From: Blastocatellia bacterium
GTDB taxonomy: Bacteria; Acidobacteriota; Blastocatellia; Chloracidobacteriales; JADJPF01
Direction of reading: 5' to 3'
DNA length: 64,000 bases
Assembly (NCBI GenBank): GCA_039812885.1
Contig: JBDIBI010000023.1
Span: forward strand, 19,395-83,394
The notes beneath the pieces were generated by a model. That model saw only the letters and a program-made list of their open reading frames with translations. It did no database searches and was not told the origin of the DNA. Numbering within the stretch: the stretch's first letter is position 1; each line of letters starts with the position of its first letter. The position numbers were made by a program, and so were the translations under genes. This document shows positions 1 through 25,186 of the stretch, in pieces.

Positions 1-163
1 GAACAAGACCTTCTTCAGTCATTACAGGATCGCTAACTGCCAATGGTGCTACTTGATTGGCATCAGCACGTTCTGGTAACTGAGTAGAAGAATTCATCAT
101 TGCACTGCTAGCTAATAAAGTGCTTGCTAGCAATAGTGCAAATAAAAACAAGTATTTTCTCAT
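1..163 (-). CDS. hypothetical secreted protein, N-terminal fragment (continues off the left edge)
   Basis: ATG at 163-161 is preceded by AAGGA. My translation, MRKYLFLFALLLASTLLASSAMMNSS..., looks like a signal peptide. The frame stays open to position 1. Confidence 0.4.
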   Translation of the reverse strand, partial: MRKYLFLFALLLASTLLASSAMMNSSTQLPERADANQVAPLAVSDPVMTEEGLV

Positions 164-233
164 AGATTATTCCTTTGTTTTCCTAGCAGGATTAAATTAA
201 TTTTATGAGTAGTTTTGTGACTACTCATTTTAT

Positions 234-836
234 TTATTTCATTTTGGCAACTAGACCAGTTTTAATATCAGCAGAAATTGGAGAAGCACCTAACCAAATT
301 GACCAAATACCTCTAGCCAATACAGGATCTTGGAAAGTAGCTTTGGTTTGTCCATTAGCTATAAACTCAATTTTTCCGCCTTGAGTCCAATGCAAAACAA
401 TCTCTTGATTAGTCTTCATATCTACTTGTGCAGCTAAGAAAGCATCAGCATTTTTCTTTGCAGGAGAATTTGCATAATTAGGAATGTTGCTTTGTAAACT
501 TTCACCAAAAGCTTCTCTAATTTTTCCTGCATCAACGTCACGAACAAAATGCATGGTAATTTGCTTTGCTGGGCCATCGGAAAGTAATTGTGTATAAGGA
601 TCTGCTGCTTTGTTGATCTTGCTAGCATCCATATAGGAAGCAATTGCATAAACTTTGAAAATAGCTTTCTTTCTGATACCTACGCCAGTGATGGTTGCTT
701 TTGCTCCACCTACACTAACTTCAGCAGGAAAACTAACACCGCTAGATGGTTCAGTAACTTGTGCGTAAGTTGGTGAAAAACAAAATAGTAATGCTAATAG
801 TGCGAAAAAAGAAAAAACGAAATTTCTTCTAGACAT
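234..836 (-). CDS. chalcone-isomerase-fold (CHI-like) secreted protein
   Basis: 200-aa ORF with an N-terminal signal peptide (FSPTYAQV). The segment GVGIRKKAIFKVYAIASYMD resembles the bacterial CHI-like family. Confidence 0.5.
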   Translation of the reverse strand: MSRRNFVFSFFALLALLFCFSPTYAQVTEPSSGVSFPAEVSVGGAKATITGVGIRKKAIFKVYAIASYMDASKINKAADPYTQLLSDGPAKQITMHFVRDVDAGKIREAFGESLQSNIPNYANSPAKKNADAFLAAQVDMKTNQEIVLHWTQGGKIEFIANGQTKATFQDPVLARGIWSIWLGASPISADIKTGLVAKMK

Positions 837-1183
837 CTTTAAACTTTTGCTCCTTAAATTGATTATTTTTGAGATTATATATTTGGATTAGAAGATTTTC
901 CCTCGATTAGCTCAATATAGCAAGTCTTTTTATATAATCTGCTTTCCATTGCTAGGCTATATATTTTAACTATGGATCACTACATTTTATTGATTTATTT
1001 ATGGGTTATAATACTTTTGGCTTTCTAAGATTAGTAGGAAAGTTTTTATTTTTTATTTTTTATTTCTGATTTTTACTAGTGTAATTTTGTAGGTAAAATT
1101 AGAATATTACTTTGGGAACATAAATATTTCTTTTAGAGTCTAATAATAAAAATCTATTTTTGTATAACTAAGGGTGAAACTAT

Positions 1184-4100
1184 ATGAGAAAAGCAGGCAA
1201 AAATACCTTTGCTATTTTTGTTCTAGTCTCGATTATTGCACTGTTTGCAGGTGTTTGGCTTTATTTTTATCCTCAACAAGTGAAAAAGACAATTACTAAA
1301 AATTTTATAGTCTCTACAACTAAAAAAGGTTTGCAGTTTCGCTTGAGTGAAGGTGAAATGGAAGTTCCAACAAATGTCCCTATCGCTAAAGCAACAAAAC
1401 TCTCAGATAGTGAAGCCGAAAAAGTGTTAAGTAGGCTAGAACCACTAAAAGCTGATGAAGAAGACAAACAAGATTTTGCCTTAAGAGAAAAATCTCTTCC
1501 ACCTCCTAAGACAGGAGAGGTAATAACAACAAAATTTCCTCCTGACCAAAATATCAAGGCTGAAGAAGTAGCAAAAGGCCCTTTACAGGTGTTGCGCTAT
1601 TCTCCTAAGGATGATGTACCAATAGCTCCTAATGTAAGCATTACATTTTCACAGCCAATGGTTGCATTAAGTTCTCAGGAAGAAGCAAGCAAAACTGTTC
1701 CTGCAAAAATTAGCCCTGAAGTAGCAGGACATTGGCGATGGTTAGGCACAAAAACATTAGTCTTTGAGCCTAAAGATAAACGCTTGCCAATGTCTACTGA
1801 ATACACTGTAGAAGTTCCAGCAGGGACTAAATCTGTTATAGGTCAAAGTTTAGCTTCTGCTGTAACTTGGAAGTTTAGAACTCCTACTTTGACTCTAAAA
1901 AAATATTTTCCAACGGAAAATTCTGTTAATACTAATCCATTGATTTATTTAGAGTTTGACCAAGCTATAGACAAAAATCTTTTATTAAATCATCTTTCCC
2001 TAGTAGGAGCTACTAATAAGGAATATAAACTTAGACTTGCTACAGAAAATGAAATTCAAGATGAAGCTGATAAAAATACAAATGTCAGAACTCTAATCAA
2101 TGCAGCTAAAGACAAATGCTGGTTAGCTGTAAAGGTTGACAACAAACTGTTAGGAGATGTTGTAGACCTTTTGCCCAAAGATACTAATTTTGTGGTAAGT
2201 GTTGTAAGAGGAACCCCATCAACTGAAGGCTCGCTTACAACAACTAACAAACAAGATTTTTACTTCAGAACCTATAGTCCACTGAAAATAATTTCACAAT
2301 CTTGTAAAGATTATGTATGTGATCCAACATCCAATATAGAAGTTAAGCTAAATAATAAAATTAATCCTGATTCTATAGATATTTCTAAAGTAGTAATAAA
2401 CCCTACATTGCCAGGAATGAAGTTAATAATTTCAGAAAATACAGTCTACATAGAAGGTAAACTAAGAGGAGAGGCAAATTATATTCTCAAGCTTGAAAAA
2501 GAGTTTGCCAAAGACGTTTTTGGTCAATATCTTGAGCATTCTGAGGTTTTGAATTTTCCAATATCAAAGGCAAAAAAACAGCTAAATTCTCTGGGTGCGG
2601 ATTTTTTAATCTTAGATCCTTTTGCCTCAGCTAAATTGCCTGTCTTTAGCACAAATCACAATGAGCTTAAAGTAAGCGTTTATGCTGTTTCACCTGAAGA
2701 CTGGAAAGATTTTGCTAAGATGCAGGAAAATTTTTCTGCATCTTATGACAAACCCGTTAATTATCAACGTCCTGTAGGAAAATTTCTATATTCAAAAGTG
2801 ATAACACCTGCAAATCAACCTGATGAGCAGGTGGAAACAGATATAGATCTAAGTGAAGCATTCCAAAATGGAAGAAGCCAAGCTTTTGTTTTTATTGAGC
2901 CTACAACTCAGCCCAAAAGTTATTGGGAACGACAATACATAAGAAAATGGGTTCAATATAGCCAAATAGGCTTGGATGCAGCCGTAGACAATGAAGAAAT
3001 GCTAGTTTGGGCTAATTCTATAAAAACAGGTAAACCGTTGGCTGGGGTAGAAGTTTCCTTAAGAAACTCAACTGCTGTTACTGGTGCAGATGGACTTGCT
3101 CATCTCAAGCTTGAAAATGCTAGTTCAAAGGACAAACCTAGTTTTTTAATAGCAAAAAGTAAGAACGATACAGCTATTTTACCTAAAATTAGTTATTATA
3201 ATACAGCTATTTTATCTAGGACTGAGTACTCTGATGAAACTTGGTCAACCATCACAACACCAGACACACTATCTTGGTATGTAATTGATGACAGAAAGAC
3301 TTACAAGCCAGGTGAAAAAGTAACAATAAAAGGATGGGTAAGAGTTAGCGAAAATAAAAAAGGTGGAGATATAAAACTTGCAGGTCAAATAAAAACAATC
3401 AATTACACACTTAACGATAGTCAAGGTAATAAAATATCCACAGGAACGTTACAAGTTAATCCACTAGGTGGTTTTAATGGAGAACTTGCTTTGCCTAGTA
3501 CTATGAATTTGGGTAATGCTTATTTAACATTGGAAGCTTTGCCAAAGGCATATGAAAATCAAACATACTCACATACTTTTCAGGTACAAGAATTTAGACG
3601 ACCTGAATTTGAAGTTTCAACAAAAGCTGATTCAAATGCTTATTTGATAGGTGAGTATGCAAATGTAACCGTATCAGCTAATTACTATGCTGGAGGAACC
3701 TTAAACAATGCTGATGTTAATTGGCAAGTTAGTTCTTCTCCAACTACTTACACTCCTCCAAATCGTAGTGAATACATTTTTGGCAAATGGACTCCTTGGT
3801 GGGGAAGTTTTGATTATGAAGGTTATAGTCGTAGAGGACGCTATAGTAGTTACACAACAAGCGAAGATAGTGAATATAATTCAGAGCGTTTTGCAGGAAA
3901 AACTAGCCCAACAGGAACACATAACCTAAGAATAGATTTTGATGCTGTTAATCCTATAACTCCAAGCAGCATTAATGTTCAAGCTTCAGTAAGTGATGTT
4001 AATAGACAAACTTGGACATCAACTTCTACTTTGCTAGTACATCCATCAAGTCTTTATGTAGGGCTAAAGAGTGAAAAAACTTTTGTTGGACAAAATGAAC

Positions 4101-7100
4101 CTTTCATTCTTAAATCAATAGTATGTGATATAGATGGAAAACTTATTCCTAACACTTCCATAAATTTTAAGTTAGTCAGACTTGACTATGAATATGACAG
4201 TCAAGGCAGATACAAGAGCAAAGAAGTTGATCCACAAACTCAAACAATAACATCAAAAGATGATGCAGTAGAAGTTAGGTTTGTTCCTAAAGAAGGAGGC
4301 TCTTACAAACTTACAGCAACAGTAGTTGACCAAAAAGGACGTAAAAATCAAACAGAGCTAACTCTTTGGGTTACTGGTGGTAAAGTCTTACCAAGCAGAG
4401 ATTTAACACAAGAAAAGATTCAATTAATTCCTGATAAGAAAGAATATGCTGTTGGTCAAACTGCTCAAATCTTGCTTCAAGCTCCTTTCTATCCAGCAGA
4501 AGGACTCTTAACCTTGCACCGCTTAGGCATTGTTAAAACTGAGCGATTTACTGTTGATTCAGCTACTTACATAATCAAAATTCCTATTGAAGAAAGATAT
4601 TTGCCTAATATTGAACTTCAAGTTGAATTGATAGGAGAATCAAGCAGGAAACAATCGTCTGATAACTCAAATGATCAATTATCAAAGCGACCAGCCTTTG
4701 CAGTAGGGCAGTTGAATTTATCAATTCCACCTGCTTCACGTAGTTTAACGGTAGAAGCAACACCTAGAGAAAAAGCCATTGAGCCAGCAGGAGAAACAAC
4801 TATAGACTTAAAACTTACAGATGCTTCAAAACGAGCCGTTGCAAATGCTGAAGTAGCTTTGTTTGTTGTAGATGAGGCTATTTTAGCTCTTTCTAATTAT
4901 CAAATGAGTAACCCGTTAGACGTTTTTTATGCTTCTCGACCATCTTCTGTAACAAATAGCCATTCGCGAAGTTATGTTTTTTTAGCTAATCCCAAAGATG
5001 TAGAAACACAAGGCGAGTTAGTAATAAATGCCAATACATCAGTTCCGACATCAGAGCCTCGTACAGAGAACACAGGTTCTATTGTGACAAAAGATTTAGG
5101 TGGAGTAGCAGATGGAGTAGTCGGTGGAATAGTCGGTGGAGTAGTTGGTGGAGTAGTTGGAAGTAGCTCTGCTTCTGAACCACCACCACCGCCGCCTATG
5201 AGCTATAAAGATAGGCCAGCTAATAAAGCTACTTTTTTAATAAGAAGATCTGAAGGTGTAACAAGGTCTCATTTTGCACGTGAACAACTTCAACCATCTA
5301 TAAAAGTTAGAGAAAACTTTAATGCTTTAGCAGTGTTTGAAGCAGCATTATCAACAGACAACAATGGACATGCAGAGGTAAAAGTAAAACTTCCAGATAG
5401 CTTAACCAAATACAGAATAATGGCAATAGCAGTGGCAGGTGAAAACCGCTTTGGTTCAGGAGAATCAAGCATTACAGCGCGTATGCCATTGATGGTTAGA
5501 CCATCAGCACCACGTTTTCTAAACTTTGGAGATAGATTTGAATTTCCAGTAGTAGTGCAAAATCAGACAGATAAACCAATGAGTGTAGATGTAGCAATGC
5601 GTGCTACAAATGCAACTTTGACAGAGGGGTTAGGTCGTCGAGTAGATGTTCCAGCAAATGAACGGGTAGAGGTTCGTTTTCCTGTTTCTGCTGAAATGGC
5701 AGGTAAAGCTAGATTCCAAGTAGGAGTAGTGTCAGGCAAATGGAGCGATGCAGCTCAAGTTAGTTTACCTGTTTGGACTCCAGCCACTACAGAAGCTTTT
5801 GCTACATATGGGACATTTGAAAGTAATGCCATAATTCAACCAGTTAAAGCTCCTGCTGATACATATAAACAGTTTGGAGGTTTAGAGGTATCTACTTCAT
5901 CAACACAACTTCAAGAGTTAACAGATGCAGTACTTTACATAGTGTCTTATCCTTATGAGTGTTCTGAGCAAATTTCTTCTAGAATCCTTGCAATTGCAGC
6001 ATTGAAAGATGTTTTGTCAGCATTTAAGGCAAAAGGTTTACCTAGTGAGGAAGAAATAAATGCAAGAGTTGCAAAAGACCTAGATAAGCTTAAAAACATG
6101 CAAGGCTATGACGGAGGGTTTGGTTTCTGGAGGCCAAATGATACAAATCCATTTGTGACAATTCACGTAGCACACGCACTACAACGAGCTAAACTAAAAG
6201 GCTATAACATTCCTCAAGATATGTTAGACCGTGTTCATGAATACTTAAGGAACATAGAATCACATATTAATGGCTACTCACCAGAAACCACAATGTCAGT
6301 TATTGCCTATTCACTTTACGTAAGAAATTTAATGGGTGATAAAGATGTTGCCAAAGCTAAGAGTATTCTCAATTCAGTTTCACTAGATAAAACACCAATG
6401 GAAACAATAGGTTGGTTATGGCCTGTGTTTACAGGGGATTCAAGCTCAACCAAGGAATTAGAAGCTATTAGAAAGTTTGTTAACAATAGAGCCACTGAAA
6501 CTGCTGCAACTGCTCATTTTGTAACAAATTATGCTGAATCAAACTACTTGTTATTAGCTTCTAATTTTAGAACAGATGCAATACTTCTAGATGCTTTAAT
6601 AGGGGATCAACCTAATAGCGATTTAATACCTAAGCTAGTTAGAGGGCTTCTAGATCATAGAACAGCAGGAAGATGGGAAAGCACTCAAGAAAATGCTTAT
6701 GTATTGCTAGCACTTGACCGATATTTTAGAACATATGAGAAAGTAACACCTAACTTTATAGCTAGAGTTTGGTTAGGCGATAATTATGCTGGAGAACATT
6801 CATTTGTTGGGCGAACTACTGAAAAGTACCAGGTAAATATCCCAATGAGTTATTTAACAAATAGTGAGCAAAACCTTGTAATAAGCAAAGATGGAGCAGG
6901 TAGAATTTATTATCGAGCAGCTATGAATTATGCACCAAAGAGTTTGGATTTACCTGCGGCAGATTATGGTTTTGTTGTTGAAAGGAAATATGAAGCAGTA
7001 GACAATCCTTCAGATGTAACAAAGACTTCAGATGGAACATGGCGAATCAAAGCAGGTGCTAGAGTTAGAGTTAAATTAAGTATGGTTGCACAATCAATGC

Positions 7101-7450
7101 GCTATCATGTTGCACTAGTAGATCCACTAGCAGCAGGACTAGAAGCATTAAATCCAGCACTTGCTAATACAGGTGCAGTGCCTCCAGAGAATAACCTTAG
7201 TCAGCAAAATAATGCTTCTAGATATTGGTGGTGGAGTGGATTTTGGTATCAACATGAAAACTTTAGAGATGAACGAATAGAAGCATTTACTACATTACTT
7301 TTGGATGGTGTTTACTCTTATAGCTATGTAGCAAGAGCTACTACAATAGGGAGCTTTGTTGTTGCTCCTACAAAGGCTGAAGAGATGTATCATCCTGAAA
7401 CTTTTGGTAGAAGCAAGACTGATAAGGTTGTTGTTTATGAGGCAAAATAG
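1184..7450 (+). CDS. alpha-2-macroglobulin family protein, thioester-containing, membrane-anchored (copy A)
   Basis: 2088-aa ORF with one N-terminal TM helix (FAIFVLVSIIALFAGVWLYF) and no lipobox Cys. The thioester motif YPYECSEQ has its Cys codon at 5960-5962. Size and layout fit bacterial A2M/ECAM-like proteins. GGGTGA lies upstream of the ATG. Confidence 0.85.
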   Translation: MRKAGKNTFAIFVLVSIIALFAGVWLYFYPQQVKKTITKNFIVSTTKKGLQFRLSEGEMEVPTNVPIAKATKLSDSEAEKVLSRLEPLKADEEDKQDFALREKSLPPPKTGEVITTKFPPDQNIKAEEVAKGPLQVLRYSPKDDVPIAPNVSITFSQPMVALSSQEEASKTVPAKISPEVAGHWRWLGTKTLVFEPKDKRLPMSTEYTVEVPAGTKSVIGQSLASAVTWKFRTPTLTLKKYFPTENSVNTNPLIYLEFDQAIDKNLLLNHLSLVGATNKEYKLRLATENEIQDEADKNTNVRTLINAAKDKCWLAVKVDNKLLGDVVDLLPKDTNFVVSVVRGTPSTEGSLTTTNKQDFYFRTYSPLKIISQSCKDYVCDPTSNIEVKLNNKINPDSIDISKVVINPTLPGMKLIISENTVYIEGKLRGEANYILKLEKEFAKDVFGQYLEHSEVLNFPISKAKKQLNSLGADFLILDPFASAKLPVFSTNHNELKVSVYAVSPEDWKDFAKMQENFSASYDKPVNYQRPVGKFLYSKVITPANQPDEQVETDIDLSEAFQNGRSQAFVFIEPTTQPKSYWERQYIRKWVQYSQIGLDAAVDNEEMLVWANSIKTGKPLAGVEVSLRNSTAVTGADGLAHLKLENASSKDKPSFLIAKSKNDTAILPKISYYNTAILSRTEYSDETWSTITTPDTLSWYVIDDRKTYKPGEKVTIKGWVRVSENKKGGDIKLAGQIKTINYTLNDSQGNKISTGTLQVNPLGGFNGELALPSTMNLGNAYLTLEALPKAYENQTYSHTFQVQEFRRPEFEVSTKADSNAYLIGEYANVTVSANYYAGGTLNNADVNWQVSSSPTTYTPPNRSEYIFGKWTPWWGSFDYEGYSRRGRYSSYTTSEDSEYNSERFAGKTSPTGTHNLRIDFDAVNPITPSSINVQASVSDVNRQTWTSTSTLLVHPSSLYVGLKSEKTFVGQNEPFILKSIVCDIDGKLIPNTSINFKLVRLDYEYDSQGRYKSKEVDPQTQTITSKDDAVEVRFVPKEGGSYKLTATVVDQKGRKNQTELTLWVTGGKVLPSRDLTQEKIQLIPDKKEYAVGQTAQILLQAPFYPAEGLLTLHRLGIVKTERFTVDSATYIIKIPIEERYLPNIELQVELIGESSRKQSSDNSNDQLSKRPAFAVGQLNLSIPPASRSLTVEATPREKAIEPAGETTIDLKLTDASKRAVANAEVALFVVDEAILALSNYQMSNPLDVFYASRPSSVTNSHSRSYVFLANPKDVETQGELVINANTSVPTSEPRTENTGSIVTKDLGGVADGVVGGIVGGVVGGVVGSSSASEPPPPPPMSYKDRPANKATFLIRRSEGVTRSHFAREQLQPSIKVRENFNALAVFEAALSTDNNGHAEVKVKLPDSLTKYRIMAIAVAGENRFGSGESSITARMPLMVRPSAPRFLNFGDRFEFPVVVQNQTDKPMSVDVAMRATNATLTEGLGRRVDVPANERVEVRFPVSAEMAGKARFQVGVVSGKWSDAAQVSLPVWTPATTEAFATYGTFESNAIIQPVKAPADTYKQFGGLEVSTSSTQLQELTDAVLYIVSYPYECSEQISSRILAIAALKDVLSAFKAKGLPSEEEINARVAKDLDKLKNMQGYDGGFGFWRPNDTNPFVTIHVAHALQRAKLKGYNIPQDMLDRVHEYLRNIESHINGYSPETTMSVIAYSLYVRNLMGDKDVAKAKSILNSVSLDKTPMETIGWLWPVFTGDSSSTKELEAIRKFVNNRATETAATAHFVTNYAESNYLLLASNFRTDAILLDALIGDQPNSDLIPKLVRGLLDHRTAGRWESTQENAYVLLALDRYFRTYEKVTPNFIARVWLGDNYAGEHSFVGRTTEKYQVNIPMSYLTNSEQNLVISKDGAGRIYYRAAMNYAPKSLDLPAADYGFVVERKYEAVDNPSDVTKTSDGTWRIKAGARVRVKLSMVAQSMRYHVALVDPLAAGLEALNPALANTGAVPPENNLSQQNNASRYWWWSGFWYQHENFRDERIEAFTTLLLDGVYSYSYVARATTIGSFVVAPTKAEEMYHPETFGRSKTDKVVVYEAK

Positions 7451-7667
7451 GCAAGTAAGTTTTATATACAAGGTTTTATTCAGTTAATAATTTTGAAAGC
7501 AACAAAATGTTATTTGGGAAAATATGGACTCTGTTACATGGCATGAGCTATTATTGCTTAATCAGTTTCCAGAATGTATTTAAGGTTTCAATTAAGCTGA
7601 AAGAAATCGCTCAACTCAGCTTTATTTTTAAGTTTTTGTAAGAAAAATATAGTATGTTAAGGAGTAT

Positions 7668-8393
7668 ATGATTGTGAAAGATACCAGAGTAATTTCTCAC
7701 TATTTTTATAGTCTGTTATTTACTATTGCAATGGTTCTATTTATAAGTTTACCAGCAAAAGCTGATGATCAAATTGTTACTGATCCAGTGCTTAATACTG
7801 CTCTAAATCAAATAGAGAAGCTATTTCCTACAATAATTCAGCAAGAGCCTAGCTTAACAATAGGTGCAGTACCAGAGATTGATTTAGCTGGGAGCAAAGG
7901 TTCATTGAGCTTTTCTTTTGAGCAAGATAATGGAAGCTTTGCAATTAATTTTGATAGCTTAAAATTTTCTCCTACTAATCCAATTAGTGCTAATAAATTT
8001 AACATTACCTTAACTGCTAAAAATATTACATTAGCTGGTTCTGCCACTATTATGGTTATGGCTAATGGTCAGCAATACACATTGCAATGCCAAGATAGTC
8101 AGTTTGTTATTGGCCCAATCTCTTTTACCGCAGAGGCTGAAATTACAAAAGAAGACATCAATGTAGATAATCCAAAACTAGATTTTGATCCTGCTAACTT
8201 AATGATTGATATGCCTTGTTTAATGCAATCTGTTGCTGGTCGTGATGGTAAAGCCATTCCAATGGATGTTCTTAAAAAGCTCCAAAGTGCAATAAAATCA
8301 TCTGCTAGTAAACGTAAATCATCTGTATCCAAAGCTACACGTATGAGTTTTATGTTATTAAGTTCAGCAATTACTTTTCGTGGTGCTAATTAA
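7668..8393 (+). CDS. hypothetical secreted/anchored protein between the two A2M genes
   Basis: 241-aa ORF with a strong AAGGAG RBS 5 nt upstream of the ATG. The N-terminal hydrophobic segment ends in PAKADD and the C-terminal tail is basic and Ser-rich. I recognise no domain. Confidence 0.6.
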   Translation: MIVKDTRVISHYFYSLLFTIAMVLFISLPAKADDQIVTDPVLNTALNQIEKLFPTIIQQEPSLTIGAVPEIDLAGSKGSLSFSFEQDNGSFAINFDSLKFSPTNPISANKFNITLTAKNITLAGSATIMVMANGQQYTLQCQDSQFVIGPISFTAEAEITKEDINVDNPKLDFDPANLMIDMPCLMQSVAGRDGKAIPMDVLKKLQSAIKSSASKRKSSVSKATRMSFMLLSSAITFRGAN

Positions 8394-8421
8394 CTAAATA
8401 ATTTCTAAAATTTTTTTCAGG

Positions 8422-8456
8422 ATGGCAGCCTTTTCAATTGGCTGCCATTATCTTTT
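8422..8456 (+). terminator. putative intrinsic terminator after the 241-aa gene
   Basis: Stem ATGGCAGCC (8422-8430) pairs with GGCTGCCAT (8440-8448) across a 9-nt loop, followed by TTATCTTTT. Confidence 0.5.
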
Positions 8457-8630
8457 AGCCACTTTTTAGATCTTAGATTGAAACATTTAATCTAGCGAAT
8501 TTTACAATAAACTCTTCTTTTTCTAAGGAACATTATTGGCAGTTGTGCGACTATAGGTTAAGCGCTAGAAAACTAGTGCATTTATCTAATTTTAAAAGAC
8601 TTCCAAAAGTTCTAAAAATAGGTGGAATTT

Positions 8631-11600
8631 ATGAGAAAAGCTGGAAAAAGTACGTTTGCTATTTTTGCTCTAGTCTCGATGGTTGCAAGTATTGCGGGTG
8701 TTTGGCTTTATTTTCACCCGGAACAAGTGAAAAGCCTAAAGAAGGCTATTGCAAAAAATTTTACAGTTTCTAAAAGCAAAAAAGGTTTGCAGTTTCGCTT
8801 GAGTGAAGGTGAAATGGAAGTTCCAACAAATGTCCCTATCGCTAAAGCAACAAAACTCTCAGATAGTGAAGCCGAAAAAGTGTTAAGTAGGCTAGAACCA
8901 CTAAAAGCTGATGAAGAAGACAAACAAGATTTTGCCTTAAGAGAAAAATCTCTTCCACCTCCTAAGACAGGAGAGGTAATAACAACAAAATTTCCTCCTG
9001 ACCAAAATATCAAGGCTGAAGAAGTAGCAAAAGGCCCTTTACAGGTGTTGCGCTATTCTCCTAAGGATGATGTACCAATAGCTCCTAATGTAAGCATTAC
9101 ATTTTCACAGCCAATGGTTGCATTAAGTTCTCAGGAAGAAGCAAGCAAAACTGTTCCTGCAAAAATTAGCCCTGAAGTAGCAGGACATTGGCGATGGTTA
9201 GGCACAAAAACATTAGTCTTTGAGCCTAAAGATAAACGCTTGCCAATGTCTACTGAATACACTGTAGAAGTTCCAGCAGGGACTAAATCTGTTATAGGTC
9301 AAAGTTTAGCTTCTGCTGTAACTTGGAAGTTTAGAACTCCTACTTTGACTCTAAAAAAATATTTTCCAACGGAAAATTCTGTTAATACTAATCCATTGAT
9401 TTATTTAGAGTTTGACCAAGCTATAGACAAAAATCTTTTATTAAATAGTCTTTCTTTAATAGGATATAACGAAAATGACAAGAACTATAAGCTTAGGCTT
9501 GCAACAGAAAGTGAAATCCAAGAAGAAGTAGATAAAGATATAAATTTTAAAATTCTACTCAATGAAGCTAAAGATAAATATTGGCTAGCTGTAAAAGTTG
9601 ATAACACTGTGTTAGGTAATATTGAAGAACCTTTACCTAAGGACAGTAACTTTGGTGTAATTGTAAACATTGGTGCTTCAGGGGAAGGAGCACTTAAAAC
9701 AACTAGTAAACAAGAGTTTTCCTTTAAGACTTATAGTCCACTAAGAGTGACTTGGCAATCTTGCAAGGATTATGAATGCCGACCTGTAGACTATTTGCAA
9801 TTCAGTCTAAATAATCAACTTAGACCAAATTCTTTGGATATTTCTAAAGCAACAATAGAACCTAAAATACCAGGAATGACTATGATAGTTTCTGGTACTG
9901 TTGTAACAATTAGAGGTAAGTTGAAGGGAAGAATAACTTATAAGCTAAAGCTTGAAAAAGAATTTATTAAAGATACTTTCGGTCAATATCTTGAAAAAAC
10001 TCAAGAAATTAACTTCCCAATATCAGCAGCAAAAAAACAACTCACTTCAATAGGTGGTGAATTAATAGCACTAGATCCATTTGCTCCTGCTAAATTGCCA
10101 GTTTTTAGCACAAATCACAATGAACTTAAAGTAACTATTTATTCTATTTCTGCCGAAGAATGGAAAAATTTTAGTAGAATTAAAGAGGAAATTGCTCAAG
10201 CCTACAATAACCCAACTGCTTATCAAAGACCTGTGGGAACCCTTTTATATTCAAAAGTGATAACACCTGCAAATAAACCTGATGAGCAAGTGGAAACAGA
10301 TATAGACCTAAGTGCAGCATTCCAAAATGGAAGAGGCCAAGCTTTTGTTTTTATTGAACCTACAACTCAACCTAAAAATTATTGGGAACGAGAATACATA
10401 AGAAAATGGGTTCAATATACTCAAATAGGTTTGGATGCAGCTGTAGACAATGAAGAAATGCTAGTTTGGGCTAACTCTCTAAAAACAGGTAAGCCTTTGG
10501 CTGGTGTAGAAGTTTCCTTAAAAAACTCAACTGCTGTTACTGGTGCAGATGGACTTGCTCACCTCAAGCTTGAAAATGCTGCTCCAAAAGATGTGCCTGT
10601 TTTGATTGCAAAAAGTGGTAATGATACAGCTATTTTACCTCAGTCATCTTATGGTTATTATAGTACCACTTGGGCAAAAGCTAACACCTCAGATACGTTA
10701 TCTTGGTATGTAGTTGATGATAGAAAGACTTACAAGCCAGGTGAAAAAGTAACAATAAAAGGATGGGTAAGAGTTAGCGAAAATAAAAAAGGTGGAGATA
10801 TAAAACTTGCAGGTCAAATAAAAACAGTGAGTTACACACTTAATGATAGTCAAGGCAACAAAATATCCACAGGAACATTACAAGTTAATCCGCTAGGTGG
10901 TTTTAATGGAGAACTTGCTTTGCCTGGTACTATGAATTTGGGTAATGCTTATTTAACATTGGAAGCTTTGCCAAAGGCATATGAAAATCAAACATACTCA
11001 CATACTTTTCAGGTACAAGAATTTAGACGACCTGAATTTGAAGTTTCAACAAAAGCTGATTCAAATGCTTATTTGATAGGTGAGTATGCAAATGTAACCG
11101 TATCAGCTAATTACTATGCTGGAGGAACCTTAAACAATGCTGATGTTAATTGGCAAGTTAGTTCTTCTCCAACTACTTACACTCCTCCAAATCGTAGTGA
11201 ATACATTTTTGGCAAATGGACTCCTTGGTGGGGAAGTTTTGATTATGAAGGTTATAGTCGTAGAGGACGCTATAGTAGTTACACAACAAGCGAAGATAGT
11301 GAATATAATTCAGAGCGTTTTGCAGGAAAAACTAGCCCAACAGGAACACATAACCTAAGAATAGATTTTGATGCTGTTAATCCTATAACTCCAAGCAGCA
11401 TTAATGTTCAAGCTTCAGTAAGTGATGTTAATAGACAAACTTGGACATCAACTTCTACTTTGCTAGTACATCCATCAAGTCTTTATGTAGGGCTAAAGAG
11501 TGAAAAAACTTTTGTTGGACAAAATGAACCTTTCATTCTTAAATCAATAGTATGTGATATAGATGGAAAACTTATTCCTAACACTTCCATAAATTTTAAG

Positions 11601-14600
11601 TTAGTCAGACTTGACTATGAATATGACAGTCAAGGCAGATACAAGAGCAAAGAAGTTGATCCACAAACTCAAACAATAACATCAAAAGATGATGCAGTAG
11701 AAGTTAGGTTTGTTCCTAAAGAAGGAGGCTCTTACAAACTTACAGCAACAGTAGTTGACCAAAAAGGACGTAAAAATCAAACAGAGTTAACTCTTTGGGT
11801 TACTGGTGGTAAAGTGTTACCAAGCAGAGATTTAACACAAGAAAAAATTCAATTAATTCCTGACAAGAAAGAATATGCTGTTGGTCAAACTGCTCAAATC
11901 ATGCTTCAAGCTCCTTTCTATCCAGCAGAAGGACTCTTAACCTTGCGCCGCTTAGGCATTGTTAAGACCGAGCGATTTACTGTTGATTCAGCTACTTACA
12001 CAATCAAAGTTCCTATTGAAGAAAGCTATTTACCTAATGTTGAACTTCATGTTGATTTAGTGGGTGAGTCAGAAAGAAATCCAGATTCTAGTAGCCCAGG
12101 TTCTCAACTGTTAAAACGGCCAGCCTTTGCAGTAGGGCAGTTGAATTTATCAATTCCACCAGTTTCACGTAGTTTAACGGTAGAAGCAACACCTAGAGAA
12201 AAAGCCATTGAGCCAGCAGGAGAAACAACTATAGACTTAAAGCTTACAGATGCTTCAAAACGAGCTGTTGCAAATGCTGAAGTAGCTTTGTTTGTTGTAG
12301 ATGAGGCTATTTTAGCTCTTTCTAACTATCAAATGAGTAATCCGTTAAGTGTTTTTTATGCTTCTCGGCCAGCATCAGTATCAGACCATCATTTAAGAAG
12401 TTCTGTTGTACTAGCTAATCCTGAAGATATAGAAGCACAAGAGGAACTTGCTAGAAATAAAGAGGCAGGAAAACCTAAACCAATACCTTCAGCTGATAAA
12501 CTTGCTGAAATGGATGATGTGCTTGGAGGTGTGGAAGGTGGCGTAGCTGGTGGTGCAATGAACCGAGTTGCTGCTGCTCCTGCTGCTGAACCTCCTATGG
12601 CACCAATGGAAGCTAAAAAAGCTGAAAGAGCAGATGTAGCTAATGCAGTTCCAGCTAGGTCTTTAAAGGCTTCAAAACCTCCTGCATCCAATTCTCCTAT
12701 AAAAGTTAGAGAAAACTTTAATGCCTTGGCAGTGTTTGAAGCAGCATTATCAACAGACAGCAATGGACATGCAGAGGTAAAAGTAAAACTTCCAGATAGC
12801 TTAACCAAATACAGAATAATGGCAATAGCAGTAGCAGGTGAAAACCGCTTTGGTTCAGGAGAATCAAGCATTACAGCGCGTATGCCATTGATGGTTAGAC
12901 CATCAGCACCACGTTTTCTAAACTTTGGAGATAAGTTTGAATTTCCAGTAGTAGTGCAAAATCAGACAAATAAACCAATGAGTGTAGATGTAGCAATGCG
13001 TGCTACAAATGCAACTTTGACAGAGGGGTTAGGTCGTCGAGTAGATGTTCCAGCAAATGAACGGGTAGAGGTTCGTTTTCCTGTTTCTGCTGAAATGGCA
13101 GGTAAAGCTAGATTCCAAGTAGGAGTAGTGTCAGGCAAATGGAGCGATGCAGCTCAAGTTAGTTTACCTGTTTGGACTCCAGCCACTACAGAAGCTTTTG
13201 CTACATATGGGACATTTGAAAGTAATGCCATAATTCAACCAGTTAAAGCTCCTGCTGATACATATAAACAGTTTGGAGGTTTAGAGGTATCTACTTCATC
13301 AACACAACTTCAAGAGTTAACAGATGCAGTACTTTACATAGTGTCTTATCCTTATGAGTGTTCTGAGCAAATTTCTTCTAGAATCCTTGCAATTGCAGCA
13401 TTGAAAGATGTTTTGTCAGCATTTAAGGCAAAAGGTTTACCTAGTGAGGAAGAAATAAATGCAAGAGTTGCAAAAGACCTAGATAAGCTTAAAAACATGC
13501 AAGGCTATGACGGAGGGTTTGGTTTCTGGAGGCCAAATGATACAAATCCATTTGTGACAATTCACGTAGCACACGCACTACAACGAGCTAAACTAAAAGG
13601 CTATAACATTCCTCAAGATATGTTAGACCGTGTTCATGAATACTTAAGGAACATAGAATCACATATTAATGGCTACTCACCAGAAACCACAATGTCAGTT
13701 ATTGCCTATTCACTTTACGTAAGAAATTTAATGGGTGATAAAGATGTTGCCAAAGCTAAGAGTATTCTCAATTCAGTTTCACTAGATAAAACACCAATGG
13801 AAACAATAGGTTGGTTATGGCCTGTGTTTACAGGGGATTCAAGCTCAACCAAGGAATTAGAAGCTATTAGAAAGTTTGTTAACAATAGAGCCACTGAAAC
13901 TGCTGCAACTGCTCATTTTGTAACAAATTATGCTGAATCAAACTACTTGTTATTAGCTTCTAATTTTAGAACAGATGCAATACTTCTAGATGCTTTAATA
14001 GGGGATCAACCTAATAGCGATTTAATACCTAAGCTAGTTAGAGGGCTTCTAGATCATAGAACAGCAGGAAGATGGGAAAGCACTCAAGAAAATGCTTATG
14101 TATTGCTAGCACTTGACCGATATTTTAGAACATATGAGAAAGTAACACCTAACTTTATAGCTAGAGTTTGGTTAGGCGATAATTATGCTGGAGAACATTC
14201 ATTTGTTGGGCGAACTACTGAAAAGTACCAGGTAAATATCCCAATGAGTTATTTAACAAATAGTGAGCAAAACCTTGTAATAAGCAAAGATGGAGCAGGT
14301 AGAATTTATTATCGAGCAGCTATGAATTATGCACCAAAGAGTTTGGATTTACCTGCGGCAGATTATGGTTTTGTTGTTGAAAGGAAATATGAAGCAGTAG
14401 ACAATCCTTCAGATGTAACAAAGACTTCAGATGGAACATGGCGAATCAAAGCAGGTGCTAGAGTTAGAGTTAAATTAAGTATGGTTGCACAATCAATGCG
14501 CTATCATGTTGCACTAGTAGATCCACTAGCAGCAGGACTAGAAGCATTAAATCCAGCACTTGCTAATACAGGTGCAGTGCCTCCAGAGAATAACCTTAGT

Positions 14601-14852
14601 CAGCAAAATAATGCTTCTAGATATTGGTGGTGGAGTGGATTTTGGTATCAACATGAAAACTTTAGAGATGAACGAATAGAAGCATTTACTACATTACTTT
14701 TGGATGGTGTTTACTCTTATAGCTATGTAGCAAGAGCTACTACAATAGGGAGCTTTGTTGTTGCTCCTACAAAGGCTGAAGAGATGTATCATCCTGAAAC
14801 TTTTGGTAGAAGCAAGACTGATAAGGTTGTTGTTTATGAGGCAGGAAAATAA
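8631..14852 (+). CDS. alpha-2-macroglobulin family protein, thioester-containing, membrane-anchored (copy B)
   Basis: The ORF track starts at a GTG (8622). The ATG at 8631 is homologous to the copy A start (MRKAGK) and has an AGGTGG RBS. The same YPYECSEQ motif is present (Cys codon 13359-13361). The C-terminal ~715 residues match copy A except for 3 substitutions and the last residues. Confidence 0.85.
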   Translation: MRKAGKSTFAIFALVSMVASIAGVWLYFHPEQVKSLKKAIAKNFTVSKSKKGLQFRLSEGEMEVPTNVPIAKATKLSDSEAEKVLSRLEPLKADEEDKQDFALREKSLPPPKTGEVITTKFPPDQNIKAEEVAKGPLQVLRYSPKDDVPIAPNVSITFSQPMVALSSQEEASKTVPAKISPEVAGHWRWLGTKTLVFEPKDKRLPMSTEYTVEVPAGTKSVIGQSLASAVTWKFRTPTLTLKKYFPTENSVNTNPLIYLEFDQAIDKNLLLNSLSLIGYNENDKNYKLRLATESEIQEEVDKDINFKILLNEAKDKYWLAVKVDNTVLGNIEEPLPKDSNFGVIVNIGASGEGALKTTSKQEFSFKTYSPLRVTWQSCKDYECRPVDYLQFSLNNQLRPNSLDISKATIEPKIPGMTMIVSGTVVTIRGKLKGRITYKLKLEKEFIKDTFGQYLEKTQEINFPISAAKKQLTSIGGELIALDPFAPAKLPVFSTNHNELKVTIYSISAEEWKNFSRIKEEIAQAYNNPTAYQRPVGTLLYSKVITPANKPDEQVETDIDLSAAFQNGRGQAFVFIEPTTQPKNYWEREYIRKWVQYTQIGLDAAVDNEEMLVWANSLKTGKPLAGVEVSLKNSTAVTGADGLAHLKLENAAPKDVPVLIAKSGNDTAILPQSSYGYYSTTWAKANTSDTLSWYVVDDRKTYKPGEKVTIKGWVRVSENKKGGDIKLAGQIKTVSYTLNDSQGNKISTGTLQVNPLGGFNGELALPGTMNLGNAYLTLEALPKAYENQTYSHTFQVQEFRRPEFEVSTKADSNAYLIGEYANVTVSANYYAGGTLNNADVNWQVSSSPTTYTPPNRSEYIFGKWTPWWGSFDYEGYSRRGRYSSYTTSEDSEYNSERFAGKTSPTGTHNLRIDFDAVNPITPSSINVQASVSDVNRQTWTSTSTLLVHPSSLYVGLKSEKTFVGQNEPFILKSIVCDIDGKLIPNTSINFKLVRLDYEYDSQGRYKSKEVDPQTQTITSKDDAVEVRFVPKEGGSYKLTATVVDQKGRKNQTELTLWVTGGKVLPSRDLTQEKIQLIPDKKEYAVGQTAQIMLQAPFYPAEGLLTLRRLGIVKTERFTVDSATYTIKVPIEESYLPNVELHVDLVGESERNPDSSSPGSQLLKRPAFAVGQLNLSIPPVSRSLTVEATPREKAIEPAGETTIDLKLTDASKRAVANAEVALFVVDEAILALSNYQMSNPLSVFYASRPASVSDHHLRSSVVLANPEDIEAQEELARNKEAGKPKPIPSADKLAEMDDVLGGVEGGVAGGAMNRVAAAPAAEPPMAPMEAKKAERADVANAVPARSLKASKPPASNSPIKVRENFNALAVFEAALSTDSNGHAEVKVKLPDSLTKYRIMAIAVAGENRFGSGESSITARMPLMVRPSAPRFLNFGDKFEFPVVVQNQTNKPMSVDVAMRATNATLTEGLGRRVDVPANERVEVRFPVSAEMAGKARFQVGVVSGKWSDAAQVSLPVWTPATTEAFATYGTFESNAIIQPVKAPADTYKQFGGLEVSTSSTQLQELTDAVLYIVSYPYECSEQISSRILAIAALKDVLSAFKAKGLPSEEEINARVAKDLDKLKNMQGYDGGFGFWRPNDTNPFVTIHVAHALQRAKLKGYNIPQDMLDRVHEYLRNIESHINGYSPETTMSVIAYSLYVRNLMGDKDVAKAKSILNSVSLDKTPMETIGWLWPVFTGDSSSTKELEAIRKFVNNRATETAATAHFVTNYAESNYLLLASNFRTDAILLDALIGDQPNSDLIPKLVRGLLDHRTAGRWESTQENAYVLLALDRYFRTYEKVTPNFIARVWLGDNYAGEHSFVGRTTEKYQVNIPMSYLTNSEQNLVISKDGAGRIYYRAAMNYAPKSLDLPAADYGFVVERKYEAVDNPSDVTKTSDGTWRIKAGARVRVKLSMVAQSMRYHVALVDPLAAGLEALNPALANTGAVPPENNLSQQNNASRYWWWSGFWYQHENFRDERIEAFTTLLLDGVYSYSYVARATTIGSFVVAPTKAEEMYHPETFGRSKTDKVVVYEAGK

Positions 14853-15190
14853 AGGATATTTCCAACAAATAGCTGTGAAGTTTATCTAGGGGGAATTTCA
14901 CCTTTTGCCTGTGGATAACTGCGCAAATTTTATTCTACAGAAAGGCATTCTTGGCAAGTTAGAATAAAGACAAGTAGATTATTAGAAATAAGTGGAGTGT
15001 TGTGTTAGGTTAGATTTTAAATACAGAGTTTTATGATTTTCTATTAGCTTCCTATAACAAGTTATTTAAGAACTAGTTACTAAAAACTCAATTTAGCTGT
15101 AACTAGGATAAAAAGATGCAACTATGGAACAAAAGTTGCGAGTTATTTATTGCTATTATGCCCCACTATTTAATTGTTTAGGAGGTTATT

Positions 15191-15724
15191 ATGAAATCTG
15201 AAGCAACAGTAAAGGCAAAAGTAGAGAATCTGCTAAAACCAATATTTGTCGAAGCAAAAGAACTTTTTGGTGAGATAAAGAAGCTAGAAGAAGCCATTGC
15301 AAAACGTGCTTATGAGTTTTTTGAAAAACGTGGAGGCAAGCATGGAAATGACTTAAATGATTGGTTTTTAGCTGAATCTGAATTACTAAAACCTGTACCA
15401 ATAGAGATCAAAGATACAGAAGACATTGTAACTGTAATAGCTGAAGTCCCAGGATTTGCAGCAGAAGATATAAAAGTTAGTGTAGAAGATAACGTACTTA
15501 TGATTAATGGGAAATTCACAAAGACTGAGGAAAAGAAAGAAGAAGGCAAAGTTGTCTTTTCAGAAATTAAATCTACTCAGTTCTTGCGCGAGTTAGTACT
15601 TCCAGCAATAGTAGATATGTCAAAGGCCGAAGCAGTTCTAAAAGACGGTGTTTTGACTCTTACTTTACCTAAGCTAGTTATTGCAGAAAAGGAAAAAAAG
15701 GAAATAGAGGTAAAGATTGTTTAG
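15191..15724 (+). CDS. Hsp20/alpha-crystallin small heat-shock protein with an N-terminal DUF2934-like extension
   Basis: The alpha-crystallin-like core runs IEIKDTEDIVTVIAEVPGFAAEDIKVSVEDNVLMINGK...LKDGVLTLTLPK. The N-terminal segment IAKRAYEFFEKRGGKHGNDLNDWFLAE looks like DUF2934. A GGAGG RBS is present. Confidence 0.8.
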   Translation: MKSEATVKAKVENLLKPIFVEAKELFGEIKKLEEAIAKRAYEFFEKRGGKHGNDLNDWFLAESELLKPVPIEIKDTEDIVTVIAEVPGFAAEDIKVSVEDNVLMINGKFTKTEEKKEEGKVVFSEIKSTQFLRELVLPAIVDMSKAEAVLKDGVLTLTLPKLVIAEKEKKEIEVKIV

Positions 15725-15761
15725 TAAAAACCACTGTGTAAGGGTAAATTTAGCAAAAAAA

Positions 15762-15800
15762 TAAGCCGCAAGTGGTAGGGCTACTTGTGGCTTATTTTAT
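15762..15800. terminator. bidirectional intrinsic terminator between convergent hsp20 and the NHL gene
   Basis: AAGCCGCAAGT ... ACTTGTGGCTT stem with an A-run on one side and TTATTTTATTTT on the other. Confidence 0.6.
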
Positions 15801-15880
15801 TTTGTTAAATGAGCTAGAAATATAAGTTAAGAGAGCTAATTTAGGGTTAAGTAAGTCTTAACCCTAGTATTATGCGTTGT

Positions 15881-25049: not shown

Positions 25050-25186
25050 AAATGTAAGTTTACTTTTCACAAAAAATTATTTTCAACAAGCGCTTTTTCA
25101 TTTGCTCTGTTATAATTATCCTATTTTCAATAACACAAAAATTTTTAAGGTTTAATCCTACCCTATTTTGGGCTGGGAGGCTTTTG

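Follow-up and report, generated by a model that had tools for sequence, protein, structure and literature searches.

The window, i.e., the whole 64,000-nucleotide stretch of DNA analyzed in this study, contains two tandem genes of the alpha-2-macroglobulin (A2M) family that differ most in a segment located where a protease bait is expected. With a probability of roughly 0.7, this segment is the bait of two membrane-anchored, thioester-containing bacterial A2Ms, whose different baits would widen or split the range of proteases met by the pair.

Tandem A2M genes and their surroundings

Copy A (1184..7450, forward strand) encodes a polypeptide of 2088 amino acid residues, and its paralog copy B (8631..14852, forward strand) encodes one of 2073 residues when translated from ATG 8631. 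The mechanically called ORF of copy B begins with GTG 8622. ATG 8631 was preferred; it has AGGTGG 7–8 nt upstream, and the resulting N-terminus, MRKAGK, is the same as that of copy A. The Pfam domains of copy A were Big_5, bMG3, MG2, A2M_BRD (residues 1079–1236), A2M (1384–1472), and bMG10 (1929–2072), and the architecture of copy B was identical in kind. In both copies, bMG3, MG2, A2M_BRD, A2M, and bMG10 exceeded their gathering scores, while no NCBIfam model matched copy A. The best PDB matches of copy A were ECAM/SaA2M, both by sequence (6.5e-35) and by fold (4e-47). The Foldseek fold matches included 4u48 (4e-47) and 5a42 (1e-46), and the top 50 were without exception A2M, C3, C5, TEP, or CD109 structures. 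Both proteins are members of the alpha-2-macroglobulin/thioester-containing protein superfamily, consisting of a chain of MG beta-sandwich domains with A2M signatures.

Both copies contain the sequence YPYECSEQ. As read from the translations, the thioester motif C-S-E-Q lies at 5960..5971 in copy A (Cys1593) and at 13359..13370 in copy B, both on the forward strand, and its C, E, and Q were invariant in a 69-sequence alignment. In the AlphaFold2 model of copy A, the CxEQ motif opens a helical region (residues 1574–1869), which is consistent with a helical thioester domain like that of other superfamily members. The C-terminal MG domain contains NFRDERIEAF and AEEMYHPE, of which R1029, D1030, R1032, E1067, E1068, M1069, and Y1070 (fragment numbering) were also invariant in the 69-sequence alignment. 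The YPYxC, RDER, and EEMY of these proteins match the Tyr, RDDR, and EXMY elements of ECAM/SaA2M (PMC4498604), except that the second D of RDDR is replaced by E. The window proteins therefore have the RDDR/EXMY-type motifs of class-1 bacterial A2Ms, which contact the TED or the cleaved bait.

Near its N-terminus, the translation of copy A has a hydrophobic segment (FAIFVLVSIIALFAGVWLYFY; 1208..1270, forward strand) that is a probable membrane anchor. A lipobox Cys was sought in the N-terminus MRKAGKNTFAIFVLVSIIALFAGVWLYFYPQQ, in which no Cys was present; thus, a signal anchor is probable. The Myxococcota homologs have a lipobox-like Cys at the corresponding place (...AGCS/...TGCR).

Between the two copies is an ORF of 241 residues with a hydrophobic N-terminus (7668..8393, forward strand). 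It matched no Pfam or NCBIfam family, a comparison with 82 related loci revealed no relative, and it occurs only once in the window. It was therefore rejected as a conserved partner and is not counted in the system. A GC-rich hairpin (GGCAGCC-9 nt-GGCTGCC) followed by ATTATCTTTT is found 3' of this ORF (8424..8446, forward strand) and is possibly a terminator that sets apart the transcription of copy B. A consensus scan for promoters and terminators between the copies yielded only near-chance matches (10 vs. 5.3 ± 2.4 expected), from which the hairpin was absent because its loop is 9 nt long. The upstream DNA and the neighbors also differ between copy A and copy B. The neighboring genes are a chalcone-isomerase-like gene, an orphan ORF, and genes for HSP20 and an NHL protein. 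In a search for a nearby pbpC, Pfam was run on 35 of the remaining 37 ORFs with 120 or more codons, and none contained a transglycosylase or transpeptidase domain. The host is a low-GC acidobacterium of activated sludge, and its genome is not among the GTDB representatives, where its closest relative is 76% identical.

Position and predicted disorder of the bait region

The initial annotation placed the bait at the diverged block, and three lines of evidence agree with this placement. Firstly, in a phmmer comparison with PDB sequences, residues 1253–1388 of copy A fell in an unaligned gap between ECAM segments. Secondly, a family HMM aligned with native-numbered E. coli YfhM paired "...FYAQRGADVSDYH" with ECAM residues 918–930, and the alignment restarted at residue 974. 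By this family profile, the block corresponds approximately to ECAM residues 931–973, inside the published bait-region domain. In ECAM, residues Arg923–Leu942 of this domain are disordered once cleaved by elastase, and Arg956 is in the cleaved bait (PMC4498604). Thirdly, the block was predicted to be disordered by AlphaFold2. The pLDDT was about 30–47 over residues 1252–1381 of copy A and below 50 over residues 1279–1368 of copy B (numbered from the GTG), with blocks of about 27–43, while that of the flanking beta-sandwich domains was mostly 75–90. The models were moderate overall (mean pLDDT 71 and 68, pTM 0.39). Global superposition on ECAM/SaA2M gave TM-scores of 0.17–0.30, which are low because the relative domain placement is uncertain in these models, and the residue-level mapping was based on the sequence-profile alignment rather than on global superposition.

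In each model, the block forms a disordered insert of about 90–130 residues that is rich in G, A, P, and M and sits between the MG domain under Pfam A2M_BRD and the MG domain under Pfam A2M. As the annotation had it, the insert lies upstream of the thioester Cys1593, at a measured distance of 221–340 residues. The profile mapping and low pLDDT therefore argue against a position within a folded MG or CUB domain, which would be at odds with a bait loop. [quoted passage not shown]

Based on divergence, family consensus, and model, the bait domain can be divided into a head and a core. In copy A, the head (residues 1253–1282; 4940..5029, forward strand) is moderately diverged and has a predicted helix at residues 1270–1283, while the core (5013..5297, forward strand), identified by blastn and AlphaFold2, has no blastn match to copy B and is predicted to be disordered. 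In copy B, head and core together span 12369..12698 (forward strand), of which the core, 12442–12696, is not similar to copy A at the DNA level, and the predicted helix covers residues 1267–1282. The interval originally assigned to the block in copy A, 4921–5299, covers the unalignable core; it also includes about 90 nt (residues 1253–1282) that are only moderately diverged and encode the head, which is conserved across the family.

Divergence between the two copies

The blastn comparison of copies A and B showed 99.67% identity between 5298–7444 and 12697–14843 (7 mismatches in 2147 nt) and 95.1% identity between 3256–5012 and 10683–12441, with no alignment between 5013–5297 and 12442–12696. 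The description of the flanks as near-identical thus holds on the 3' side but is too strong for the 5' side, which is 95–98% identical. The protein identity of the bait core (residues 1283–1371 of copy A) was 38% over 61 alignable columns, while those of the other diverged blocks were 57–74% and those of the remaining blocks 91–100%. The bait core is therefore the most diverged block, in agreement with the initial annotation, whose peptides quoted for both copies were found at the positions given. The bait head was 57% identical, with a dS of 1.10 and a dN of 0.28.

Outside the bait, the copies differ in four further blocks, with an identity of 59% over 275 residues of the N-terminal part. The suggestion that the two proteins are the same trap is therefore an overstatement, and a functional difference between them need not reside in the bait. 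The dS values were 0–0.045 across three large near-identical blocks, 0.11–0.26 in three short transition blocks, and 0.4–1.1 in the bait and the four other diverged blocks. Next to the bait, which has a dS of about 1.0, are 687 codons with a dS of 0.004. Given dS values near 0 in the identical blocks vs. 0.4–1.1 in the diverged ones, the gene pair is a mosaic, i.e., an old pair mostly homogenized, probably by gene conversion. In every diverged block, the closest relative, P0002, was nearer to copy B than to copy A. The dN/dS of the bait core was about 0.86 (dN close to dS, from a poor alignment), a value that near-neutral drift could also produce.

The two baits are not as unrelated as first thought. 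Their cores have a homologous middle, D-x-V-x-GG-x-x-GGV-x-GG ... EPP, i.e., (GGV)n-EPP, for which the Smith-Waterman score was 78, with a z of about 8–9 against shuffles. A frameshift origin of the divergence was considered and rejected; local nucleotide alignment of the two baits recovered only the GGT-GGA-GTA repeat (score 25 vs. a shuffle maximum of 24). Within bait A, TRF identified a 12-nt tandem repeat (GGTGGAGTAGTC, 4.9 copies; 5099..5157, forward strand) that encodes (GGVV)n. The family consensus of the bait head is SDYHLRxxVxLxNPxD, from which copy A deviates (TNSHSRSYVFLANPKD). In residue classes, the two baits were similar, with 10 tryptic sites each, 11 vs. 10 bulky hydrophobic residues, and 51 vs. 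48 small residues in A and B, respectively. By this content, both baits look broad-spectrum. Given the similar numbers of the main classes of cleavable residues, the sequences give no ground for predicting the two-specificity pair of the initial annotation, and any difference in specificity would be at the subsite level.

The initial annotation had called for a survey of bait diversity among orthologs. Among 120 homologs, the bait was the least conserved internal segment and was hypervariable. Its length ranged from 67 to 128 residues, and its mean pairwise identity was 24%, compared with 75% for the C-terminal part. Tandem arrays of 2–3 copies were also found at four loci of Myxococcota MAGs. 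In 5 of the 6 paralog pairs of these arrays, no window was less similar than the bait, and in the remaining pair, the signal peptide was the only window to rank below it. The bait identities of the Myxococcota paralogs were 0.10–0.25, compared with 0.49–0.65 overall.

Both baits were also detected in metagenomes. A unitig bubble with the two baits was present in three runs from two studies, in which the depths of the shared flank (22, 25, and 7) approximated the sums of those of bait A (8.8, 10.7, and 3.7) and bait B (10.9, 13.1, and 4.6). The depth ratio of bait A to bait B was about 0.8:1 and constant across the three runs. Between populations, each bait changed by 1 SNP, with one additional repeat-unit indel in A, and the flanks changed by several SNPs. 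The indel is an in-frame 12-nt insertion after 5129 in the unitigs of runs X5, X6, and X10, equal to one extra GGVV unit. In an RNA-labeled run that may contain DNA, two low-depth contigs mapped to bait B and none to bait A.

Explanations of the bait difference and comparison with known systems

The difference between the two baits could be neutral, although we regard this as rather unlikely. Length, exposure, and cleavability would then be all that a bait requires, and it would drift freely, repeat slippage included. The proteases caught by the two copies would be one and the same broad set, and any effect of the duplication would come via dosage or regulation. The copies would differ at the bait because non-homologous sequence resists gene conversion. 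The family-wide hypervariability in length and sequence, the similar dN and dS of the core, and the copy-number polymorphism of the 12-nt repeat are all as expected from such drift, as is the similar residue-class content of the two baits. The different upstream regions would also permit separate regulation. However, a heterology of 285 nt could have been erased by conversion tracts anchored in the near-identical flanks, but independent populations still contain the two baits at a ratio of about 0.8:1. Moreover, each bait type has recognizable relatives in other species (P0004 and P0003 for bait A, z 12–14), so some constraint must act on the bait sequences. The composition of the bait follows a family-wide order, from Gly-rich to Pro-rich to basic to acidic, which argues for selection on the bait layout. 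Finally, bait-centered divergence repeats in four independent tandem arrays.

It is very improbable that copy A is a diverging or neofunctionalized paralog with a non-working bait domain, leaving copy B as the only trap. Such a loss would explain why copy A has TNSHSRSYVFL in place of the family SDYHLRxxVxL, is, throughout the diverged blocks, more distant from each outgroup than copy B is, and lacks contigs in the RNA-labeled run. However, the frame of copy A is open and full-length, its thioester domain and C-terminal half have been kept identical to those of copy B, the AlphaFold2 model shows its bait as disordered and accessible to proteases, and copy A is conserved between populations, while the RNA support consists of two low-depth contigs of one run possibly containing DNA. 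Although assemblers mishandle repeats such as long near-identical stretches, an artifact in which two strain alleles of a single gene were misplaced in tandem was ruled out from the unitig depths, i.e., from the presence of both baits at about 0.8:1 in three metagenomes with flank depths near the sum of bait depths, and the distinct upstream DNA and neighbors, the ORF between the copies, and the tandem arrays of other phyla also speak against it.

If the two proteins are protease traps with different baits, as we favor, they would probably work like other members of the ECAM/SaA2M family. A foreign endopeptidase reaching the periplasmic side would cleave the exposed bait, the freed bait would push the C-terminal MG domain off the thioester domain, and the thioester would couple to a lysine of the protease, which would thus be trapped. 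By this analogy, bait cleavage, thioester formation, and trapping may all take place in the window proteins, and two baits on one scaffold would widen, or divide between them, the range of proteases by which the trap is sprung.

Similar to the window proteins, ECAM (YfhM) and SaA2M of class 1 possess a multi-MG scaffold, a disordered bait-region domain at the homologous position, a YPYxCxEQ thioester in a helical TED, a C-terminal MG domain with RD(D/E)R and ExMY (PMC4498604), and an N-terminal membrane attachment, which is probable for the window proteins. Different from the 1653 residues of ECAM/SaA2M, however, the window proteins are about 2080 residues long, with an extra N-terminal part containing Big_5, and the identity over the aligned fold is about 19%. 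ECAM/SaA2M have a lipoprotein signal, whereas the window proteins have a hydrophobic anchor without a lipobox Cys. The bait insert of about 120 residues is 2–3 times longer than the approximately 50 unaligned residues of ECAM. In addition, yfhM abuts pbpC in E. coli, whereas the window genes have no adjacent pbpC, and there are two tandem copies in the window instead of the single one of ECAM/SaA2M.

The combination of a conserved trap scaffold with alternative hypervariable baits follows the same logic as that of eukaryotic alpha-macroglobulin paralogs and bait splice variants. Four bait-region variants are described for soft-tick TAM in PMC5438962, which cites Saravanan et al. (2003), and a conserved trap with hypervariable baits is described for mammalian A2M family paralogs (Sottrup-Jensen et al., 1989, as cited in PMC3735191). 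Unlike these, the alternatives in the window are neither splice variants nor long-diverged vertebrate paralogs but two whole tandem bacterial genes, whose scaffolds are alike by apparent gene conversion. Tentatively, the tandem A2M arrays of Acidobacteriota and of the four Myxococcota loci may constitute an anti-protease repertoire of bacteria with multiple baits, comparable to the animal bait splice variants, in which conversion keeps the scaffold uniform and selection and slippage diversify the bait, tuned to the proteases of competitors or predators in dense communities, of which activated sludge is an example. The pair, together with the arrays of myxobacteria, suggests that bacteria living freely in crowded communities turn such traps on each other's proteases. 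The hypervariable bait on a conserved trap, a design long established in animals, is thereby extended to a new bacterial setting rather than overturned. With mainly the bait differing on a nearly constant scaffold, the pair and the arrays are also a natural experiment that could be used to probe how bait sequence relates to protease range, and the family might provide scaffolds for methods of protease capture such as those of PMC9918453.

Class 2 is represented by MagD of P. aeruginosa and YfaS of E. coli, which belong to the same superfamily and are likewise large MG-domain proteins of the periplasm. MagD lacks both Cys and CxEQ, and its gene is part of a six-gene mag operon (PMC3735191). In the window proteins, by contrast, CxEQ is invariant, and their genes are not in an operon of this kind. 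Many of the homologs are labeled "YfaS" in the JGI annotation, a name derived from COG.

Probable position of the bait region in the two A2M proteins

Two long open reading frames (ORFs) for alpha-2-macroglobulin (A2M) proteins are arranged in tandem on the + strand of the window, whose GC content is low (~35%). Copy A spans 1184-7450 and encodes 2088 amino acid residues; copy B, as a mechanical ORF, spans 8622-14852 with GTG 8622 as its first codon. The true start of copy B is most likely ATG 8631, as it is preceded by an AGGTGG box and gives a polypeptide start, MRKAGK, identical to that of copy A. The DNA similarity between the copies starts only ~10 nt 5' of the ATG, and the upstream regions of the two copies are therefore different. 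The Pfam series Big_5, bMG3, MG2, A2M_BRD, A2M and bMG10 and the thioester motif YPYECSEQ (Cys1593 in copy A) were identified in both proteins. CxEQ was invariant and preceded by YPY, and the last domain contained RDER and EEMY motifs. The nearest relatives of the large proteins of the window were from Acidobacteriota MAGs of Blastocatellia/Pyrinomonadaceae type, and the metagenomes with matching sequence were mainly from activated sludge and wastewater.

The block that differs most between the copies (4921-5299 in A and 12350-12698 in B) is very probably the A2M bait region (probability about 0.9). This assignment, already proposed in the initial annotation, is based on four independent lines: phmmer searches, profile alignment, AlphaFold2 models and variability within the family. 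In phmmer comparison with PDB sequences, residues 1007-1252 and 1389-2075 of copy A aligned to the A2Ms of E. coli (ECAM) and Salmonella (SaA2M), leaving 1253-1388 unaligned. When E. coli K-12 yfhM, the ECAM gene adjoining pbpC, was aligned to a profile built from 121 family sequences, the family's '...DPLSVFYAQRGADVSDYH' was opposite ECAM 918-930, and the alignment restarted at ECAM 974 with 'SVPTDANG...', upstream of the ECAM thioester Cys at 1187. On this alignment, the hypervariable block is the counterpart of the ECAM bait-region domain. The AlphaFold2 model of residues 1000-2088 of copy A, built with 68 homologs, had pLDDT of ~30-47 over 1252-1381, a stretch of coil almost throughout, interrupted by a single helix (1270-1283), versus mostly 75-90 in the neighboring beta-sandwich domains and 85-96 in the helical thioester domain. 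The copy B model was similar, with pLDDT <50 over B 1279-1368 and a helix at 1267-1282. The top structural matches were SaA2M 4u48 (4e-47) and ECAM 5a42 (1e-46). Thus, the block is bracketed by the ECAM/SaA2M alignment, is predicted to be disordered in both models and does not lie inside a folded MG/CUB domain. In the alignment of 120 homologs, no other internal segment along the 2000 residues of the protein was as poorly conserved as the bait, with lengths ranging from 67 to 128 residues and a mean pairwise identity of 24% versus 75% for the C-terminal part. At the level of sequence and predicted structure, the domain order and a disordered insert at the right place are shown. In the same alignment, two further gap-rich loops varied family-wide: residues 661-680 (window ~3164-3223) in the bMG3 region, and residues 881-900 (window ~3824-3883), a Tyr/Ser/Arg-rich insert YSRRGRYSSYTTSEDSEYNS with the same sequence in both copies.

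Divergence and history of the two copies

The bait peptides quoted in the initial annotation are correct, and the block is the most diverged part of the two genes. By blastn, the identities between copies A and B were 84.7% (1173-3184 vs. 8621-10640), 95.1% (3256-5012 vs. 10683-12441) and 99.67% (5298-7444 vs. 12697-14843; 7 mismatches in 2147 nt). No blastn alignment was found for 5013-5297 and 12442-12696, and the 3' boundary of the block was sharp, at 5297/5298. The bait core (residues 1283-1371) was 38% identical over 61 alignable columns, with dS of 1.00 and dN of 0.86, and the bait head (1253-1282) was 57% identical (dS 1.10, dN 0.28). The baits, described initially as unrelated-looking, are not wholly unrelated, since their cores share a middle part, D-x-V-x-GG-x-x-GGV-x-GG ... 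EPP (Smith-Waterman score 78, z ~8-9 against shuffles).

Four further blocks were also diverged between copy A and its counterpart in copy B, with dN/dS of ~0.3-0.5, within sequence of 98-100% identity: window 1184-1345 (residues 1-54; 74% identity, dS 0.43, dN 0.12), 1994-2818 (271-545; 59%, 0.86, 0.27), 3134-3283 (651-700; 62%, 0.90, 0.33) and 4574-4693 (1131-1170; 60%, 0.57, 0.29). Residues 55-270 (100%; dS 0.00, dN 0.004), 701-1130 (98%; 0.045, 0.008) and 1401-2087 (100%; 0.004, 0.001) were near-identical. The copies thus differ outside the bait as well, notably over the 275 residues of the second diverged block in the N-terminal part, and to call them the same trap is not exact. The divergence of this N-terminal block could mean that A and B also differ in partners or anchoring. 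Diverged blocks amid near-identical sequence look like a mosaic of gene-conversion type.

The closest relative, P0002, is 74% identical and is encoded by a single A2M gene (locus L001, 1-9778, compared with window 1-17947). As in the window, the gene upstream is chalcone-isomerase-like and the one downstream encodes an NHL-repeat protein. Between these two neighbors, the window contains copy A, an orphan ORF, copy B and an HSP20 gene (15191-15724). The orphan ORF (7668-8393; 241 residues, hydrophobic N-terminus) matched nothing in Pfam or NCBIfam, was without relatives among 82 related loci, and was not in L001. Either the window gained its additional A2M gene together with the orphan ORF and the HSP20 gene, or the relative lost these three. 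The near-identical blocks were 98-100% identical between A and B and 76-85% identical to P0002. Copy B was closer than copy A to P0002 in every diverged block; for residues 271-545, the identities were 59% (A-B), 60% (A-P0002) and 68% (B-P0002). The closest baits to that of copy A were those of the more distant homologs P0004 and P0003 (z 12-14). With the diverged blocks at dS 0.4-1.1, the pattern fits a duplication of long standing or the import of a second allele, with recent gene conversion having homogenized most of the length. It is at odds with a young duplicate that changed rapidly at the bait.

An assembly artefact is ruled out by the assembly graphs of three metagenome runs from two studies, in which the bait formed a bubble: a shared unitig (depth 22.3/25.4/7.1) split into bait A (8.8/10.7/3.7) and bait B (10.9/13.1/4.6) unitigs that rejoined in another shared unitig (27.2/29.9/6.8). 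The A:B depth ratio was ~0.8 in each run, as expected of two copies in one genome.

Composition and variation of the bait

The bait head, with its predicted helix, is conserved in the family as SDYHLRxxVxLxNPxD. Among the 121 sequences, Met (3.3-fold), Ala, Gly and Pro were over-represented in the variable core, whereas Trp, His, Tyr, Phe, Leu and Ile were scarce. Its composition followed an order, from Gly-rich through Ala/Met, Pro-rich and Lys/Arg-rich to acidic, that was kept across the family though the sequence itself was unconserved. The first four steps were present in baits A and B.

Bait A contains (GGVV)n, encoded by 4.9 copies of a tandem repeat of 12 nt, GGTGGAGTAGTC (window 5099-5157). 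The populations of runs X5, X6 and X10 had one extra in-frame repeat unit, and the length of bait A thus varies within the species. Besides this indel, only one SNP per bait was found between these populations, synonymous in A (5146 T>C) and Asp to Asn in B (12633 G>A), versus several in the bait flanks; thus, the baits are not unusually unstable over short time scales. A 160-residue reverse-strand ORF (12389-12871) overlaps bait B and is most likely a by-product of its GCT/GCA-rich Ala/Pro coding, not a gene.

Specificity, known systems and tandem arrays

By homology with ECAM and SaA2M, the protein would be tethered to the cytoplasmic membrane by its N-terminal hydrophobic segment and would face the periplasm. 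Cleavage of the exposed bait by an endopeptidase would release it to compete with the contact that the C-terminal MG domain makes with the thioester domain; the thioester would then react with the protease and trap it (PMC4498604). Similar to class-1 bacterial A2Ms, the window proteins possess both mechanistic marks, bait and CxEQ (PMC3735191), but lack the usual lipobox and adjacent pbpC. They do not belong to class 2 (MagD/YfaS), which has no Cys and is encoded in a six-gene operon (PMC3735191).

A hypervariable bait on a conserved scaffold is a principle long known in animals: mammalian alpha-macroglobulin paralogs differ mainly at the bait, and soft-tick TAM has four bait-region variants, supposedly originating from alternative splicing (PMC5438962). 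Within the literature searched, no paper was found on bacterial tandem A2M paralogs with different baits. The gene-conversion mosaics and recurrent tandem arrays are a modest twist beyond what is known.

In a scan of GTDB representative genomes, the family was found in Acidobacteriota, Chloroflexota and Myxococcota. Tandem arrays were present in 4 of 82 loci, all four from Myxococcota-type MAGs, with three copies in L047 (6020-22168) and L082 (2-18371) and two in L065 (3-12157) and L068 (3-12145). The bait was the least similar 40-column window in five of their six paralog pairs; in the sixth, the signal-peptide window alone scored lower. Among internal parts, the bait was lowest in similarity in all pairs. 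Bait identities were 0.10-0.25 versus 0.49-0.65 overall. All array copies kept CxEQ, and their N-termini were lipobox-like.

The stock of cleavable residues is much alike in baits A and B, respectively: Lys/Arg not before Pro (10 and 10), bulky hydrophobic (11 and 10), small (51 and 48) and Pro (11 and 12). Bait B contains more Lys, Met and Ala and is more acidic; bait A contains more Gly, Val, Ser and Arg. From composition, both baits look broad. Four points speak for a selected difference between them: both persist despite near-identical flanks, each bait type has relatives elsewhere among species, the family keeps the compositional order and the pattern is repeated in other tandem arrays. 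A functional split into two specificities, the weak element of the initial interpretation, is possible, at somewhat less than even odds; the interpretation is supported for the position of the bait and only partly for its function.

Two peptidase genes also occur in the window, one for a PDZ-containing serine protease of DegP/HtrA type (25184-26722) and one for a dipeptidyl-peptidase 7-like peptidase S46 (47037-49124), without evident link to the A2M genes. In the RNA-labelled public run X29, no contig covered bait A-specific sequence, and two low-depth contigs on the copy B bait region (12313-12484 and 12658-12850) hint weakly at transcription of copy B.
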